From: Candidatus Woesearchaeota archaeon
GTDB taxonomy: Archaea > Nanobdellota > Nanobdellia > Nanobdellales > CAZNIQ01
Length of the DNA stretch: 12,766 nt
Direction of reading: 5' to 3'
Assembly: GCA_964573185.1 (NCBI GenBank)
Contig: CAZNIQ010000021.1
Coordinates: 1 to 12,766, forward strand
The notes beneath the pieces were generated by a model. That model saw nothing but the letters and a program-made list of their open reading frames with translations, was not told the origin of the DNA and did no database searches. Each line of letters begins with the position of its first letter. Position 1 is the stretch's first letter. Below are positions 165 through 10,639 of this stretch, piece by piece. Position numbers and translations under genes: made by a program.

Positions 165-834
165 AATAGACAGGGACGATCTGAATCAAAAATTAGGAGG
201 AGGGATACCTAGAGGTAGTTTAATGATTATTGAAGGTCCAGATGGAACAGGAAAATCAGTTTTATCTCAAAGAATAACGTATGGCGCTTTAGCTAATGGT
301 TCTTCTGTAACCTATATTTCTACAGAGCTTTCTACGTGGGATTTCTTAAAACAGATGAATTCATTAAACTATATAATTGATAATTATTTATTTAATGGTA
401 AATTATTGTTTTTAACATTAGTTCCTTTGTATGCCGATATTGAAGAAGGAGAAAATCTTATATTTAAATTAGAAGAATCGCCCCAACTTTTTGAAAGGGA
501 TATTCTTATAATAGATTCATTATCTTATCCTTTAGTATCGGAATTGTCATATAAAGAAGTTAAAGAGCTAGTTATGTTTTTAAATAAGGTAAAAGACGAT
601 AAAATAATTATTCTAACATATGATCCTGAATCGATTGATCAGAAATTGGTAAAAGAACTAAGGAGAATTGCAGATATATATTTTAAGTTAAAAATAGGTT
701 CCATTGCTGGTCAAAGAGTGAGATTTATCGAGATAGAAAGATTTAGAAACGCCCTAGATACCTACACACCAGTTATACCCTTCAGAGTTGAGCCTAAATT
801 AGGATTCGTTATAGAAATAGTATCAGTAGTATGA
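145..834 (+). CDS. flaH: Archaellum accessory ATPase FlaH/ArlH (KaiC/RecA-like, single domain)
   Basis: 229 aa. The N-terminus LGGGIPRGSLMIIEGPDGTGKSVLSQRITYG is the typical FlaH/KaiC-like opening with Walker A GPDGTGKS. A Walker-B-like hydrophobic strand ends in Asp (ILIIDSLS). Its stop overlaps the flaI ATG (ATGA at 831-834), which implies co-translation with the FlaI homologue. Confidence 0.85.
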   Translation: MKYISIEIDRDDLNQKLGGGIPRGSLMIIEGPDGTGKSVLSQRITYGALANGSSVTYISTELSTWDFLKQMNSLNYIIDNYLFNGKLLFLTLVPLYADIEEGENLIFKLEESPQLFERDILIIDSLSYPLVSELSYKEVKELVMFLNKVKDDKIIILTYDPESIDQKLVKELRRIADIYFKLKIGSIAGQRVRFIEIERFRNALDTYTPVIPFRVEPKLGFVIEIVSVV

Positions 835-3800
835 GGTTAAATCCTAAAAAAGCAAAAGTATTTATTGAAGAGAAAACAACAGATTTTCAAGAAGCTTTAA
901 GAAGATATCCGCATTTAAGAGAATACGTTCAGAAGGTTTCAGCAGAGTTAGGGATGCCAGATTGGAAAGTAGAATTAACAAGGGATCTTAGAGAAATAAA
1001 ATATCCAAATATAATTTATCCAGTAGGTGACCCAATTTTTATACATATTTATAGGAAACCGGGTGAGCCTGTGAAGTACTATGCCATAGAACCTCAATTG
1101 AATGCAAAAGAAAAAGAATTATTTAACAAAATAATGGATAAAATAACGCAAGCGGCAGTAAATCTACCTGTACCAAAATCAAAAGAAGATTTATACAATA
1201 ATCTTATAACATTATTTGAGAAATTCGTAGTTCCAAAAGATAAAGCTTCTGTAATAGATAGGCTAACAAAGATTGTAGTTCCAAGGGAAACTTATGACAA
1301 ACTTAGGTATTATTTAATTAGAGAGAGAATTGGATATGGAAAGCTAGAACCCTTGTTAAGAGATCCTTACCTTGAAGATATTCATGTTTTAGGTATAGGT
1401 CCTATCTGGGTTACACATAAGATTTGGGGTACTATGCAAACAAATTTGGCCTTCTGGGATGAAAAAGAGCTGAATAAATATATTATAAAAATGTCTGAAT
1501 TAGTAGAGCGTCCAGTCTCAGACGCAAGACCTATTGTTGACGCTATAATGCCTGATGGTTCTAGAGTTAATTTTATTTACGGTAAAGACATTTCTTTAAA
1601 AGGTTCTTCATTTACAATAAGAAAATTTACTAAAAAGCCTATATCAATAACTCAGTTAATTGCTTGGAATACCATGTCTGCAGAGGAAGCTGCTTATTTA
1701 TGGTTAGCAATAGAACACGGAATGAATATATTTGTAATCGGTGAAACAGCATCTGGAAAATCCGTTGCAGGGTATGAAAAAACTTTAGTGATATTTGATG
1801 ATAGAGTTGAATTGTTAAGTTTTGACGAACTATGGAAAAAATGGAATAAAAAAGAAATTAAGATAGGGAATTTTGTAGGAAAGAGGACCTGTTTCAAAAT
1901 ATATTCAATTGATGGCATAGATAAACCTATCTTACTTTTAAAACACGATTCCCCAGAGTATTTATATGTTATTGAAACTATAGGAGGAAGAAAGGTAACT
2001 GTAACCCCAGATCATTCCTTATTTGTATTAGATGGAGAAATAGGGGAAATAAAAGTTAAAAAACCAACAGAATTAAAGAAAAAAGATTATCTAATTTCCA
2101 TAAGAAGGTTAAAGCTTCCCGAGAAAAAGTTATCCAAAGAGGAAATAATAAAAATAATCGGAAATTCAAGATATAGGGATAAAATAAAAATTGAAAATGA
2201 TTATTTAGTATGTGGAAGTGGAAAAGTAAAGATAGATTATATAAACTCTGAAAAATTTGCATTTTTGTTTGGTATATTCATAGCTGAAGGAACATTTGAT
2301 CATAAAGGTGTTAAAATATTTAATAAAGATGAAAAAGTAATTAAAACTATAGAATCTTTTGCAAAAGATTTAGGTTTCCATGTAAAAATAGTTAAACCAA
2401 AGAATAGAGTTCCATATGTATTTCTTGGAAAACTTGCTGAATATTTATTCAAAATTTTTGGTTATGAAAAGAAAAGAATTCCATGGATCTTCTGGACAAT
2501 GCCAAAAGAATGGAAAAAAGCATTCTTAAGAGGTTTATTTACAGGAGATGGTGCTGTTACTGATAGAGGCGTTGAGATAGTAACTAGAGATAAAGATTTA
2601 GCAGATGATTTGATTTATGCTTTATCAACTTTCGGAATTTTTGCTTCTAAATATGAAAAGAAAATTAATGGAAAAACTTATTATAGAATTGAGATATCAC
2701 GATACTGGTTAGAAGAATTCTTAGAAATAGGTTTCCTTCAAGAGGAAAAAAATGAAAGAATAAGAAAATTAATAGAAAAGCAAGATTATTTTAGATCGGA
2801 GCACGATATTATTCCAAATGTTTTACTGAAAAAATACTGGAAAGAAATTGAAAAGTATTCAAAATTATCCGGAGATATATTTAGAAAAATTGGAATTTAC
2901 AATGGGAGAAATATAAGTAGAAAGCCACTAAGAAAATTATTAGAAAAAGTGGATCCTGAAAAGAAATTATTGAAGAACTTATGGTCATTAGTTGAATCTA
3001 ACTTACTATTTTTAAAAATAAGAAAAATAGAAAAAATAAAAAGTGATTCTAAGTATGTTTATGATTTTGAAGTTCCAGGATCACAAAGCTTCTTAGCAGG
3101 AGATTTAATTATAGTTCATAATACAACAACATTGAATGCACTAACTGTTTTCATTAGACCAGATTGGAAAGTTTATTCTGTTGAGGACACTCCTGAGGTA
3201 AATATTCCGCATCCAGTATGGCAAAGAACTGTTACCAGAGAAGCTGGAAAGCAAACAGATGTTGAGATGTATGATTTGTTAAAAGCTGCCTTAAGATCTA
3301 GACCTAATTATATAATAGTTGGGGAAATACGTGGTAAAGAAGCTTATGTAGCGTTTCAAGCGATGCAGTGTGTAAAAGATGCTCAAGTAGTTTTAGGAGA
3401 TGATGTTAAAAGTATAAAAGAGATATTTGAAGAATATAAAAAGAAATATAGAAGTAAGAGTATTGATGGAAAAGAAATAGTTGAAATAAAGGAAAATTTG
3501 GAGATTCCCGCTTTTGATCCAAATATAGGATTAACTAAAGCAAGGGTTAAGGCTATTTTGAAGATGCCTAAAAGCAGGTTAATTAAAGTTGTTTTAGAAG
3601 ATGGAAACGTATTTGAAGTAACCCCAAATCACAAATTTATAACTCGTTATGGCGAAATCGAAGCTAGAAATCTAAAAGAGGGATTAAAAATAATAACATT
3701 TAATGATAAATTATCAAAAATAAAGGAGGTAGAAATTGTTGAAATAAAAAAAGTAAATAAAGATAATACATATGATTTGTTATTAGAAGGGGCCAAATAT

Positions 3801-4316
3801 TATATAGGCTTTACAGATGGTAATCCTATTCCCTTAGAAGATACGGGACACCCTGTGCTAAGCACTATGCACGCAGGATCAGTCAGGCAGTTAATTGAAA
3901 GACTTACGGGACCCCCGATGAATGTTCCAATAACTTTTATAGATAACTTAAATATAGTTGTTTTGCAAGGAACAGTTTTCATCAAAGGAAACATGGAAAG
4001 AAGAGTGTTATCTATAACAGAAATAGAGAGATATATACCTGAAATAAATAGAATAGCTACAAGAGAAGTTTTTGTCTGGGATAAATTAAAGGATAAACAT
4101 GTTTTTAGAGGAAAATACAATTCTTATATTTTAGAATATAAAATAGCTCCAATGATGAGATTAAAGGATAGGAGAAAAATATATGAAATATTGGAGTTAA
4201 GGAAAAGGATTTTGGAAAGAATGGTAGAGGAAAAGATATTTGATTTCTTCGAAGTATGGAATGTTATAAGAAGATTCTATGAATATGGAATAGAAGGCTT
4301 GCCTTTCAGCTTATAA
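831..4316 (+). CDS. flaI: Archaellum motor ATPase FlaI/ArlI (type II/IV secretion NTPase superfamily), precursor containing two inteins. The predicted spliced product is 549 aa.
   Basis: The 1161-aa ORF has exteins at 831-1760 (310 aa), 3123-3368 (82 aa) and 3843-4313 (157 aa). Joining them restores Walker A GETASGK/TTTLNAL, the Asp-box/Walker B PNYIIVGEIRGKEAYVAFQAMQ, and the His-box /TGHPVLSTMHAGS. It lies immediately downstream of flaH and overlaps it. Confidence 0.9.
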   Translation: MRLNPKKAKVFIEEKTTDFQEALRRYPHLREYVQKVSAELGMPDWKVELTRDLREIKYPNIIYPVGDPIFIHIYRKPGEPVKYYAIEPQLNAKEKELFNKIMDKITQAAVNLPVPKSKEDLYNNLITLFEKFVVPKDKASVIDRLTKIVVPRETYDKLRYYLIRERIGYGKLEPLLRDPYLEDIHVLGIGPIWVTHKIWGTMQTNLAFWDEKELNKYIIKMSELVERPVSDARPIVDAIMPDGSRVNFIYGKDISLKGSSFTIRKFTKKPISITQLIAWNTMSAEEAAYLWLAIEHGMNIFVIGETASGKSVAGYEKTLVIFDDRVELLSFDELWKKWNKKEIKIGNFVGKRTCFKIYSIDGIDKPILLLKHDSPEYLYVIETIGGRKVTVTPDHSLFVLDGEIGEIKVKKPTELKKKDYLISIRRLKLPEKKLSKEEIIKIIGNSRYRDKIKIENDYLVCGSGKVKIDYINSEKFAFLFGIFIAEGTFDHKGVKIFNKDEKVIKTIESFAKDLGFHVKIVKPKNRVPYVFLGKLAEYLFKIFGYEKKRIPWIFWTMPKEWKKAFLRGLFTGDGAVTDRGVEIVTRDKDLADDLIYALSTFGIFASKYEKKINGKTYYRIEISRYWLEEFLEIGFLQEEKNERIRKLIEKQDYFRSEHDIIPNVLLKKYWKEIEKYSKLSGDIFRKIGIYNGRNISRKPLRKLLEKVDPEKKLLKNLWSLVESNLLFLKIRKIEKIKSDSKYVYDFEVPGSQSFLAGDLIIVHNTTTLNALTVFIRPDWKVYSVEDTPEVNIPHPVWQRTVTREAGKQTDVEMYDLLKAALRSRPNYIIVGEIRGKEAYVAFQAMQCVKDAQVVLGDDVKSIKEIFEEYKKKYRSKSIDGKEIVEIKENLEIPAFDPNIGLTKARVKAILKMPKSRLIKVVLEDGNVFEVTPNHKFITRYGEIEARNLKEGLKIITFNDKLSKIKEVEIVEIKKVNKDNTYDLLLEGAKYYIGFTDGNPIPLEDTGHPVLSTMHAGSVRQLIERLTGPPMNVPITFIDNLNIVVLQGTVFIKGNMERRVLSITEIERYIPEINRIATREVFVWDKLKDKHVFRGKYNSYILEYKIAPMMRLKDRRKIYEILELRKRILERMVEEKIFDFFEVWNVIRRFYEYGIEGLPFSL
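1761..3122 (+). mobile_element. Intein 1: full-length intein (454 aa) with a LAGLIDADG homing endonuclease domain, inserted in the FlaI P-loop
   Basis: It starts with Ser (SVAGYEKTLVIFDD, block A-like). Block B is VTVTPDHSLF (TxxH). The two LAGLIDADG motifs are FAFLFGIFIAEGT (about 2262-2294) and AFLRGLFTGDGA (about 2520-2555). Blocks F/G are YVYDFEVPGSQSFLAGDLIIVHN, followed by Thr at +1. Removing it gives GETASGKTTTLNAL. Confidence 0.85.
3369..3842 (+). mobile_element. Intein 2: mini-intein (158 aa, no endonuclease domain) inserted just before the FlaI His-box, with an atypical C-terminus ...PLED
   Basis: It starts with Cys (CVKDAQVVLGDD, block A-like). Block B is VTPNHKF. The block F-like stretch is NTYDLLLEGAKYYIGF. 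The block G position reads TDGNPIPLED and is followed by Thr at +1. Removing it gives FQAMQ/TGHPVLSTMHA, the usual FlaI/GspE-family His-box context. Confidence 0.7.
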
Positions 4317-8669: not shown

Positions 8670-9743
8670 ATGAAAATGAACTTAAAATTAACTTCACGTG
8701 CAGATTTATATCTTGTTCACGGAAAGGTACCTCATTATCATGAAATGGTTAACCTATCTAGATACATCCTTAAATTAATGATAGAAGATTTAGGATTGGA
8801 TGAAACGGTACGAAGGTTTTCAAATGCAGCATGGTTTCAATGTTTAGCTTCAGTTTTAGGAATGGAATGGTATACTTCTGGTTCTACCACTGTTGTTTTT
8901 AAAGCTCTAAAAGAAGCTTCAATAAAAGAAAATTTACCTATTAAGTTTTTAGGGGGAAAAGGCAAAGATGCAATAAATATTCAAAAAGAAATAGAAAAAT
9001 ATGATCTAGATGGGAAATTTAAAGAAATATCAATAATTACTGTTAAAACTGATAATGCGTTAATACAAGACTCTTTTCAAATATATTTTCACGGAATGAT
9101 TATTGGAGAGAAGGAATATGTTGTTATAAATCAAGGAATGAATGAAAAGGAAAGATTAGTTAGAAGATATCATTGGTTAAGTCCAGAAGATTTTAGAGAA
9201 GATCATTTTAAATCAGAAACTAATAAAGTTACTTTAAATTTAGCACACAGGAAAATAGAGGAAACGAGAAAAGCTATTCTGGATTTATTACAAGAGCCCA
9301 TTGAAAGAATACAAAGATACTTTATTACGGTAAAAAATACTTTGGAAAATAGGACGTTATCTGAATATTTTGAGAACATAAAAATTATAAGGTTACCATA
9401 TTACCTTAAGCTCCCTAAAAAGTTAGATTTAAAAGTAATTGAGAAAGCAAGAGAAGTTATAGAGTTTAAGGAGTTGCTTAAAATAAAAGGATTGGGTCCA
9501 GCAACTTTTAGAGCATTAGCATTAATAGCTTCAATAATTTATGGAGAGCCTTTATATTGGGAAAAACCTGAAATATATTCTTATGCGCACGGAACAAAAT
9601 CTGGAAAACCATACTTTGTTAACAAGAAACTAATGTTAGAAAGCGCTGAAATCCTTAAAGAAATAATAGAAAAACTTCCTAAAGAATATAGAGTAAAAGC
9701 AATGAGAAGATTGGCAAGAACTACTGGGGCCGCCGGGATTTGA
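8670..9743 (+). CDS. DUF763-family protein with a helix-hairpin-helix motif near the C-terminus. Function is unknown.
   Basis: 357 aa. From memory, the N-terminal ADLYLVHGKVPHY ... RRFSNAAWFQCLASVLGMEWYTSGSTTVVFKALKE resembles the conserved DUF763 core (LPLHxGxxP ... WFQ ... DWHSSG-TT ... LKE). IKGLGPATFRALALIA is HhH-like. The last 19 nt overlap the 3' end of the convergent tRNA gene. Confidence 0.65.
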   Translation: MKMNLKLTSRADLYLVHGKVPHYHEMVNLSRYILKLMIEDLGLDETVRRFSNAAWFQCLASVLGMEWYTSGSTTVVFKALKEASIKENLPIKFLGGKGKDAINIQKEIEKYDLDGKFKEISIITVKTDNALIQDSFQIYFHGMIIGEKEYVVINQGMNEKERLVRRYHWLSPEDFREDHFKSETNKVTLNLAHRKIEETRKAILDLLQEPIERIQRYFITVKNTLENRTLSEYFENIKIIRLPYYLKLPKKLDLKVIEKAREVIEFKELLKIKGLGPATFRALALIASIIYGEPLYWEKPEIYSYAHGTKSGKPYFVNKKLMLESAEILKEIIEKLPKEYRVKAMRRLARTTGAAGI

Positions 9744-9830
9744 ACCCGGGACCTCCCGGTCTTCAGCTTCGCCACGGGTAAGGTGCGCCCTTACCCGTAC
9801 GGGCGCTCTCCCGGGCTGAGCTACGGCCCC
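9725..9830 (-). tRNA. tRNA-Phe (anticodon GAA) with a 32-nt intron at non-canonical position 30/31. No CCA is encoded.
   Basis: The minus-strand read is GGGGCCG TA GCTC AGCCCGGGA GAGC G CCCG[intron]G CTGAAGA CCGGG AGGTC CCGGG TTCAAAT CCCGG CGGCCCC A. The acceptor stem has 7 bp, the T arm 5 bp, the D arm 4 bp and the spliced anticodon stem (CCCGG/CCGGG) 5 bp. All of them pair perfectly. The anticodon loop is C-U-GAA-G-A. The mature length is 74 nt with 55 G+C by my hand count. Confidence 0.9.
9768..9799 (-). other. tRNA intron (32 nt) bounded by a bulge-helix-bulge splicing motif
   Basis: The intron is TACGGGTAAGGGCGCACCTTACCCGTGGCGAA. Exon CGCC pairs with intron GGCG to form the 4-bp central helix. 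It is flanked by the 3-nt bulges CG|T and AA|G, and both cleavage sites fall after the second bulge nucleotide. The intron also forms a perfect 10-bp hairpin, ACGGGTAAGG/CCTTACCCGT, with loop GCGCA. Confidence 0.85.
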
Positions 9831-9856
9831 GCTAAAGATTTATTTCTTAGAAAGAA

Positions 9857-9864
9857 ATTTTAAA
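9857..9864 (-). promoter_or_regulatory. Candidate TATA box (TTTAAAAT, preceded by a purine-rich CAAAA BRE-like stretch) for tRNA-Phe
   Basis: On the minus strand TTTAAAAT lies 27-34 nt upstream of tRNA nucleotide +1 (9830). That is the spacing expected for an archaeal promoter giving a very short 5' leader. Confidence 0.45.
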
Positions 9865-9868
9865 TTTT

Positions 9869-9916
9869 GTGATGAAAGGACCGAACGCTGAATATGATGA
9901 GGGAATATTAATCTGA
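9869..9916 (+). ncRNA. C/D box sRNA (guide for 2'-O-methylation) with two 12-nt guides
   Basis: The element order is C box GTGATGA (9869-9875), a 12-nt guide AAGGACCGAACG (9876-9887), D' box CTGA (9888-9891), 2 nt, C' box ATGATGA (9894-9900), a 12-nt guide GGGAATATTAAT (9901-9912), and D box CTGA (9913-9916). All four boxes are perfect and both spacers are exactly 12 nt, which is the canonical archaeal architecture. I see no obvious terminal stem. Confidence 0.75.
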
Positions 9917-10639
9917 TCCGTATAAAAACCTTGCAAGATTCTTTTGTATAATTTTTTTCAATTTATCTATTGGAACGCTCTTTACTTTCGAAATATACTC
10001 CAATGTCAATTCTATTAAACTTGGAGAGAGCTTTAGACCTCTATAATCATAAGGACCATCTGATTCTGTTAGTATATTTTTTAAATCTGCTTTTTTAAGA
10101 ACCTCTTGATGTTTCTTCTGTATTCTAATTGCAGGATTTATTCCAATAAAATACCCTTTTTCTTGAATTTCTTCTAATAAATCTAAAGGTCCAGTATACC
10201 AGTGAAAATAAGCTTTCTTTATATCATATTTCAACAATAAATCAAAAACGTCCCTCCAAGCATCCGGAGCATGAAGATTTAAAGCTAAATCATATTCCTT
10301 AGCTAGCTCTAAAAAATACTTAAAGAATTCCAATTGTTTATCAAATGTTTCAGGAACAAATTTTTTATCTAACCCTATTTCTCCTAAAACTGAAATTTCA
10401 TATTTTTCAACTAACTTTTTTATCTTTTCAAGATCTTCTTTTGAATGCTTATGGACTTCCCATGGATGGATTCCAACAGCAGGAATAATATGTTCATATA
10501 ATAAAGAGAGATGAATTGTTTTATAAGAAGAAGAGATATCATCTGAAACTGCTAACAAAATATATTTATCTTTAGGCCATCTTCTCAATTCAGTTTTTTC
10601 ATATTCATACAAATGCACATGTGCATCTACAATCTTCAT
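9908..10639 (-). CDS. tatD: TatD-family metal-dependent hydrolase/DNase
   Basis: 243 aa. The N-terminus MKIVDAHVHL carries the HxH metal site. Other matches are GIHPW, the GEIGLD motif, LNLHAPDA (His), YFHWYTG (His) and LTESDGPY (Asp). Together these cover the usual TatD amidohydrolase-fold ligand pattern. The ATG overlaps the upstream gene's TGA (ATGA at 10636-10639). Confidence 0.85.
   Translation of the reverse strand: MKIVDAHVHLYEYEKTELRRWPKDKYILLAVSDDISSSYKTIHLSLLYEHIIPAVGIHPWEVHKHSKEDLEKIKKLVEKYEISVLGEIGLDKKFVPETFDKQLEFFKYFLELAKEYDLALNLHAPDAWRDVFDLLLKYDIKKAYFHWYTGPLDLLEEIQEKGYFIGINPAIRIQKKHQEVLKKADLKNILTESDGPYDYRGLKLSPSLIELTLEYISKVKSVPIDKLKKIIQKNLARFLYGSD

Follow-up and report, generated by a model that had tools for sequence, protein, structure and literature searches.

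We report here a stretch of 48 bases in an archaeal DNA sequence of 12,766 nucleotides (the whole stretch that was analysed, referred to below as the window) that is very probably the unannotated gene of a dual-guide archaeal box C/D sRNA, with a predicted RNA of ~48-55 nt. The element occupies positions 9869-9916 of the forward strand and reads GTGATGA/AAGGACCGAACG/CTGA/AT/ATGATGA/GGGAATATTAAT/CTGA, which places its boxes in the order C-D'-C'-D around two spacers of exactly 12 nt each. Box C (9869-9875; GTGATGA, corresponding to RUGAUGA) aligns with the box C columns of the models described below (model R1 and the Rfam sR families) and is followed on the same strand by the D' guide AAGGACCGAACG (9876-9887; 12 nt, with CGUUCGGUCCUU as its perfect target), box D' (9888-9891; CTGA), a D'-C' linker (9892-9893; AT), box C' (9894-9900; ATGATGA), the D guide GGGAATATTAAT (9901-9912; 12 nt) and box D (9913-9916; CTGA), all of which can be read directly from the letters. 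When box C' is counted as UGAUGA only, the linker becomes 3 nt long (AUA), and a gap of 3 nt between the D' CUGA and the UGAUGA core of C' is also found in the sRNAs of N. equitans. An earlier reading of this DNA, made from sequence only, had given the same order of boxes and spacers, and re-reading of the letters showed it to be exact; its further statement that no other TGATGA in the window has a CTGA 12 nt downstream was borne out as well, as only the hexamers at 9870 and 9895 do so among the 10 present on both strands. The layout of the element is far beyond chance. The full C-D'-C'-D arrangement is found a single time in the window and never in 2000 dinucleotide-preserving shuffles, and the half motif TGATGA-N12-CTGA arises at a rate of 0.0235 per window in the same 2000 shuffles.

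Comparison with models of C/D sRNAs, which the sequence-only reading had called for, gave a two-sided result: a generic model ranks the element first, whereas the C/D families of Rfam stay below threshold. The generic model (R1) uses sequence only; its training set comprised four sRNAs of N. equitans and one of S. acidocaldarius, all listed in the PMC4644070 supplement (Dennis et al. 2015), and it was run with filters off against 88.5 kb made up of the window and five related loci. Its top match in this search space is the window element (18.2 bits, E = 1.8e-4), and the runners-up are all located in relatives (candidates at L135:13468-13515 (+), L135:16358-16404 (-) and L007:2558-2592 (+), where the prefix names the related locus); two of these three candidates were also matched by a regular expression. 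In the Rfam scan of the window, tRNA alone rose above its gathering threshold. With relaxed thresholds, many Pyrococcus C/D families (sR2, sR9, sR49, sR14 and others) span the element from box to box at 18-21 bits; the gathering thresholds are 36-50 bits and the best score is 21.2 versus 42 (sR2), such that the element is a member of none of these families. Rfam recognizes the class architecture of the element and no specific family. The predicted minimum free energy is -3.2 kcal/mol, with 198 of 200 shuffles folding equally well or better, and the element has no terminal stem and no predicted hairpin or terminator-like structure; this predicted lack of structure is as expected for an sRNA with accessible guides. 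Together, the canonical ordered boxes, the 12-nt guides, the predicted unstructured state and the first rank with the generic model support the original claim of an unannotated C/D box sRNA. No genes for L7Ae, Nop5 or fibrillarin are located in the window.

In RNAs of this class, the C/D and C'/D' box pairs fold as a kink-turn and a kink-loop, respectively, and bind L7Ae and then Nop5 and the methyltransferase fibrillarin. About 10 nt of the 12-nt spacer pair with the substrate in structures of C/D RNPs, and the substrate nucleotide opposite guide position 5, counted upstream from box D or D' (the +5 nucleotide), receives a 2'-O-methyl group. Guide targets were judged by the criterion of Dennis et al. 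(2015), which asks for at least 9 consecutive Watson-Crick pairs to rRNA or tRNA with the +5 nucleotide included. As neither the host nor its lineage yielded an rRNA sequence, the targets of both guides rest on proxy rRNAs. The perfect target of the D guide is AUUAAUAUUCCC, and its 10-nt core within the 23S domain III hairpin (G-UUAAUAUUCC-C) is perfectly complementary in the 23S rRNA of six of the seven reference archaea (P. calidifontis, T. tenax, M. kandleri, N. equitans, I. hospitalis and M. maripaludis) and of E. coli (1388-1397), yielding 10 consecutive pairs that include the +5 nucleotide on these seven proxy rRNAs, none of which is the host's. In the 23S alignment of the PMC4644070 supplement, the site reads GGG(G)UUAAUAUUCCC(C) in P. 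calidifontis, T. tenax, M. kandleri and N. equitans, CCGGUUAAUAUUCCGG in I. hospitalis and CAGGUUAAUAUUCCUG in M. maripaludis, and only S. acidocaldarius departs from the core among the seven archaea (UUAACAUU). In E. coli numbering, which was taken from a real rrl gene and anchored on A2602, the target comprises G1387-U1398 and the +5 nucleotide is A1391. A 10-nt run including the +5 nucleotide was reached on E. coli 23S rRNA by 20 of 20000 shuffled D guides (p ~0.001).

These results agree with the sequence-only reading in that the D guide fits a conserved loop of the LSU rRNA (10/10 core pairs in the six archaea and E. coli) and in that the +5 rule lands on the second A of UUAAU, as seen both on the rRNA alignment and on E. 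coli 23S. The E. coli stretch that it had cited, GGUUAAUAUUCCUG, does exist, but it sits at 23S positions 1386-1399 and not at 1370-1380, ~15 nt off. Because the D guide is complementary to the hairpin loop in archaeal and bacterial rRNAs alike, an Am would be expected at the equivalent of A1391. The core of the guide, GAATATTAA, is present in none of the sRNAs listed for the seven reference species, N. equitans included, and four M. kandleri sRNAs that are marked near the D hairpin (Mka sR22, sR24, sR43 and sR102) show no pairing with its loop, the comparison at this spot covering these Mka sRNAs and leaving aside the P. calidifontis (Pca) sRNAs marked there. Methylation at the A1391 equivalent is thus not among the sites predicted by Dennis et al. 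2015. The D guide is AT-rich and has many near matches within the AT-rich sequence of the host genome. Scans of viral contigs returned 0 matches, both for the 23S D site and for the D half of the sRNA.

The D' guide, which the sequence-only reading had left unplaced, has its best rRNA match at the base of helix 93 (E. coli 23S A2602-U2613, AGUUCGGUCCCU). The pairing there is Watson-Crick over 9 contiguous positions (E. coli 2603-2611), including C2606 at +5, and 218 of 20000 shuffled D' guides do as well on E. coli 23S rRNA (p ~0.011). This placement is backed by an 8-mer, GACCGAAC, that the window D' guide has in common with the D' guide of M. kandleri sR3, in the same register relative to box D'. 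C2606 (pan-archaeal U/C2880, helix 93 base) is predicted to be modified in all six of six thermophilic archaea, and the named guides are Mka sR3, Neq sR10, Iho sR6, Pca sR30, Sac sR13 and one T. tenax sRNA, which is called sR152 in the text of the paper and sR112 in a figure legend (Dennis et al. 2015, PMC4644070). On the seven reference archaeal 23S rRNAs, the D' guide forms 6-8 pairs, as compared to 9 consecutive pairs on E. coli. At helix 93, the sequence GUUCGGUCC is present in E. coli and in 0 of these 7 archaea, which mostly contain GGUCGGUCU (GUGUGGAUU in N. equitans); against either sequence, the guide has an internal A-G mismatch. Each nucleotide that the guide predicts at the variable positions 2604-2611 occurs in at least one of the eight aligned rRNAs. 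We consider it probable that the D' guide targets helix 93 and places a methyl group on the equivalent of C2606, a reading made on proxy rRNAs.

Among the matches listed, wider scans for the D' target gave only rRNA of bacterial or probably organellar origin. A collection scan for 23S rRNA with the perfect D' target (CGNCGNGAGNCNGTTCGGTCCTT) yielded at least 120 bacterial 23S genes and no archaea among the matches listed, and AGUUCGGUCCUU, an 11/12 match to the D' target, is found at the helix 93 site in at least 120 bacterial 23S genes. In a metagenome scan, no archaeal-type 23S rRNA with GUUYGGUYYU at helix 93 was found; the pattern permitted G-U pairs and required U at 2612, and for this reason it would miss GUUCGGUCCC. 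The helix 93 pattern also matched six low-GC (31-41%) rRNA contigs (L129-L134), four of which contain bacterial-type LSU by Rfam (two with LSU followed by SSU and one with a group II intron); these six contigs are probably organellar and unrelated to the sRNA. A search for tRNA or local targets of the D' guide returned none besides the gene's own antisense strand, a T-loop target of the Cm56 type was rejected by eye, and the H69-71 segment AACGGUCCUAAGG matches over 7 nt only.

In the mechanism that we propose, transcription would probably start from the gene's own box-A-like promoter, divergent from a tRNA-Phe gene, and the 3' end of the transcript would overlap the end of tatD on the other strand. 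As in other members of the class, L7Ae would bind to the C/D kink-turn and the C'/D' kink-loop, Nop5 and fibrillarin would assemble, and each 12-nt spacer would form a duplex of ~10 bp with rRNA. The D guide would pair with the 23S domain III hairpin loop UUAAUAUUCC and direct formation of Am at the A1391 equivalent, and the D' guide would most likely pair with the 5' strand of the helix 93 base, adjoining the peptidyl-transferase centre, and direct formation of Cm at the C2606 equivalent; the latter step requires that helix 93 of the host reads GUUCGGUCC, as it does in E. coli. A long-range folding role has been proposed for N. equitans sR15 and sR17 on 16S rRNA (Dennis et al. 2015, PMC4644070). 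That the sRNP described here similarly tethers domain III to domain V, with targets ~1200 nt apart, and so acts as a long-range folding chaperone in 50S assembly of a reduced-genome archaeon, strikes us as improbable.

The gene is located between tRNA-Phe and tatD, in agreement with the sequence-only reading: Rfam and ARAGORN place tRNA-Phe(GAA) at 9725-9830 (-), and the tatD ORF extends over 9908-10639 (-). The tRNA gene lies 38 nt to the left of the element on the opposite strand, diverging from it (Rfam score 50.4 bits), and contains a 32-nt intron at a non-canonical position ('aragorn -i', i(33,32)). At default settings, ARAGORN reported no tRNA in the window, and this gene was found only when introns were allowed. 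In the Rfam alignment, the tRNA shows a 41-nt insert in its anticodon arm, and the intron holds a 10-bp hairpin. On the other side, the claimed 9-nt overlap with the tatD 3' end holds, as the tatD ORF reaches down to 9908 (-): positions 9908-9916, the 3'-terminal 9 nt of the element, lie opposite the tatD stop and the two codons before it, with box D antisense to the terminal Ser-Asp codons. The tatD stop and an extension of three codons (Gly-Ser-Asp; 9908-9919, -) run into the sRNA gene, covering box D and entering the D guide. In all five TatD homologues compared (53-81% identity), the protein terminates with ...FLY or an equivalent, and the GSD extension is present in the window TatD only. 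The extra codons and the new stop thus sit inside the sRNA gene, as if it had replaced the original stop. Expression of tatD might also, though this is improbable, be coupled to transcription of the sRNA through the antisense overlap at its extended 3' end.

Two putative promoter elements were located by eye in the intergenic DNA. A TATA-like candidate box A for the sRNA, TTTATT, is positioned at 9839-9844 (+), 25-30 nt upstream of G9869, and a palindromic TTTAAA at 9859-9864 would suit the divergent tRNA-Phe gene; the latter would be too near box C for a promoter of the sRNA. In N. equitans, box A lies ~26 nt upstream of transcription starts and TTTAAA is the tRNA promoter consensus (Randau 2012, PMC3491384). 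In the closest relative (GCA_054017035.1, TatD 81% identity), synteny is held upstream of tatD and is broken exactly at the tatD 3' end, and the DUF763 side is likewise rearranged, which places the sRNA gene at a rearrangement breakpoint. This position fits published descriptions of C/D sRNA genes as mobile and as frequently overlapping ORF ends (Randau 2012, PMC3491384). DUF763 itself is split into three ORFs of 84, 204 and 48 aa in the closest relative (L135:7666-8724, as compared to 8670-9743 in the window), and is therefore probably a pseudogene there. The flaI block is inverted beside DUF763 in the same genome, and the synteny of the window is lost on both sides of the tRNA-Phe/sRNA spot.

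The host is a metagenomic archaeon of ~30% GC with GC-rich RNA genes, and the window encodes a KaiC-like ATPase, the archaellum ATPase FlaI with intein domains, a RIO kinase, aCPSF1, a proteasome beta subunit, DUF763 and TatD. The named relatives of its TatD are Nanopusillus/Nanopusillaceae (52-59%) and Desulfurococcales (~52%), and the best named relative of its DUF763 is an Aenigmatarchaeota MAG (44%), on which basis a DPANN or Nanoarchaeota-like host seems probable. The ENA contig ERZ27262635:k141_272809 differs from the window at 14 of 12766 positions (99.89% identity), none of them in the sRNA, and a Logan contig (SRR7968109) is identical to the window across 1976 overlapping bases. The sRNA sequence is hence identical in three assemblies of one population, which their near-identity or identity indicates was sampled more than once. 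FlaI (T2SSE family; 831-4316, +) is 1161 aa long in the window and has intein-splicing and LAGLIDADG matches, whereas the orthologue in the closest relative is 711 aa long (L135:8714-10849), indicating that one or more inteins are present in one population and absent from the other. Five related genomes, covered over ~75 kb, yielded no homologue of the sRNA. Following the gene order outward from homologues of TatD and DUF763 revealed neither an sRNA copy nor any rRNA, the intergenic DNA around tatD in one related locus (L005) contains no sRNA copy, and a search of the literature for the guide and target strings returned nothing relevant.

The related genomes do hold further C/D candidates. In a close relative, the element at L135:13467-13515 (+) reads ATGAAGA GCACGGCCGCCT CTGA TAA ATGATGA TTTTTCGAGGAA CTGA and reaches 17.1 bits in the R1 search; the D' guide of this candidate complements 23S GGCGGCCGU, around E. 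coli 1906-1915, a region known as a hot spot of methylation. A second candidate on the opposite strand of this locus (L135:16358-16405 (-); 16.8 bits) reads UGAUGA GUAAUCCCAUUU CAGA AAA AUGAAGA GACUACUGGGGC CUGA, and by eye its D guide seems complementary to the 790-loop region of 16S rRNA (CCCnnGUAGUC). The third, found at L007:2557-2606 (+) and L008:529-578 (+), reads ATGATGA ATGACGTGCGAT CTGA AGA ATGAAGA AAAGGAGGTGATA CTGA and is located directly upstream of tatD in a relative of 24% GC; its D guide complements the anti-Shine-Dalgarno region at the 3' terminus of 16S rRNA (AUCACCUCCU).

Other readings of the element differ from ours mainly in what they assign to the D' guide. In one of them, the RNA has a single working guide, the D guide, and the D' guide is either an orphan or directed at a tRNA, 5S rRNA or other RNA. 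There is precedent for this, as 163 of 489 archaeal sRNAs lack any significant complementarity to rRNA and D' guides that are 'empty' have been described (Dennis et al. 2015, PMC4644070), and a perfect D' target is absent from the seven archaeal rRNA sets and from the fetched loci, the gene's own antisense strand aside. We nonetheless regard it as a minority possibility, to be kept in mind, because a random spacer would be unlikely to find its best rRNA match exactly at the most conserved archaeal methylation site and to share an in-register 8-mer with a known guide. In another reading, the D' guide acts close to the D target, on a 23S segment (archaeal GAGUCGGUCCUAAGG, E. coli 1339-1351) with the methyl group on the equivalent of C1343, and the RNA would be a conventional double guide that also aids folding of domain III. 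This segment, GAGUCGGUCCUA, precedes the D target by ~45 nt. In the 23S rRNAs of N. equitans and I. hospitalis it contains UCGGUCCU, 8 contiguous nucleotides of the D' target with the +5 position included, which by a rough estimate would occur by chance within 100 nt of the D target in about 1-3% of cases, and both targets do lie within 100 nt of each other in 262 of 489 archaeal sRNAs (Dennis et al. 2015, PMC4644070). Against this, the AG that precedes this 8-nt match is invariant in 8 of 8 aligned rRNAs and mismatches guide positions 2 and 3, beside the methylation site, so that the local target falls short of 9 consecutive pairs; the match to helix 93 is longer on E. coli (9 nt), and it has the similarity of the guide to known sRNAs in its favour. 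On balance, local pairing appears unlikely, and helix 93 remains the target that we prefer for the D' guide.

A different question is whether the gene is active at all. Its location at a synteny breakpoint, the displacement of the tatD stop by three codons, the described mobility of C/D sRNA genes (Randau 2012, PMC3491384) and the absence of a homologue from the ~75 kb of the five related genomes could all be expected if a mobile gene had inserted at the 3' end of tatD and its copy there were now silent or in decay, neither expressed nor assembled into an RNP. Decay would, however, first erode just those features that are intact here, namely four consensus-perfect boxes, spacers of the optimal 12 nt and a D guide with 10/10 pairs to rRNA, and we judge such a copy to be very improbable. 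It is hardly credible that the element is a chance motif, or an antisense or terminator element of the tatD 3' end without C/D function. Although the 9-nt overlap with tatD on the opposite strand and the many near matches of an AT-rich guide in an AT-rich genome could be cited for it, none of 2000 shuffles reproduces the full layout, the half motif has an expectation of 0.02 per window, the two independent rRNA complementarities have p values of ~0.001 and ~0.011, and no hairpin or terminator-like structure is predicted. A box C/D sRNA with two guides is accordingly the reading that we retain.

The window sRNA is an ordinary further case of a large known class, and it leaves the working principle of these RNAs unchanged. 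In thermophilic archaea, few RNA gene families are as large as the box C/D sRNAs, and these are almost never annotated in metagenome-assembled genomes because the curated models are guide-specific. The present example adds one clean C/D gene for an uncultured archaeal lineage of ~30% GC, and with it two predicted rRNA modifications: Am at the A1391 equivalent, a site for which Dennis et al. 2015 give no prediction in any of their seven reference archaea, and Cm at C2606, of all reported archaeal C/D targets the most conserved. That the two predicted targets of one sRNA are ~1200 nt apart is of modest interest, as is a gene that sits at a synteny breakpoint and rewrites the last codons of the neighbouring tatD, to which three codons are added.

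The closest parallel among known systems is N. equitans, which has 26-27 box C/D sRNA genes (Randau 2012, PMC3491384; Dennis et al. 2015, PMC4644070). Like the window element, its sRNAs are compact (RUGAUGA-12-CUGA-3-RUGAUGA-12-CUGA, ~50 nt) and encoded in an AT-rich genome, and their genes lie directly against, or extend into, ORF ends and tRNA genes and have a box A ~26 nt upstream; Neq sR10, with CTGA-ATA-ATGAAGA, has the same 3-nt D'-C' loop. A point of difference is that the tRNA neighbour in the window is divergent, so that tRNA-Phe and the sRNA do not form a dicistronic unit. When Rfam sR2 (RF01139), sR9 (RF01312), sR49 (RF01303) and sR14 (RF01145) are compared to the element, their four boxes align end to end with its own, whereas the guides differ. 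Among the guides to C2606, the D' guide of Mka sR3 (GGCGACCGAACA) contains GACCGAAC in register with the window D' guide and selects the same +5 nucleotide, and the Neq sR10 guide (AAAATCCACACA) resembles the window D' guide in consisting of AA, nine complementary nucleotides and one that is unpaired, with an A facing the invariant C2612. This likeness to the C2606 guides resides in the register and core of the D' guide. Four C/U2606 sRNAs are conventional double guides whose partner site lies in the same part of the 23S rRNA (pan-archaeal 2807-2908), in contrast to the window sRNA, whose partner (D) guide targets domain III, ~1200 nt away. For the domain III hairpin, the relevant comparison is with eukaryotic U24/snR24, which guides 2'-O-methylation on both stem strands of the homologous LSU hairpin, presumably at C1437, C1449 and G1450 of yeast 25S rRNA, around GGUUAAGAUUCC. 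No sequence homology is known between U24/snR24 and the window guide RNA, and the target nucleotides differ, as those of U24/snR24 are in the stem, whereas the window sRNA would select an A in the loop. On these assignments, the domain III hairpin would be a spot of methylation in eukaryotes too.
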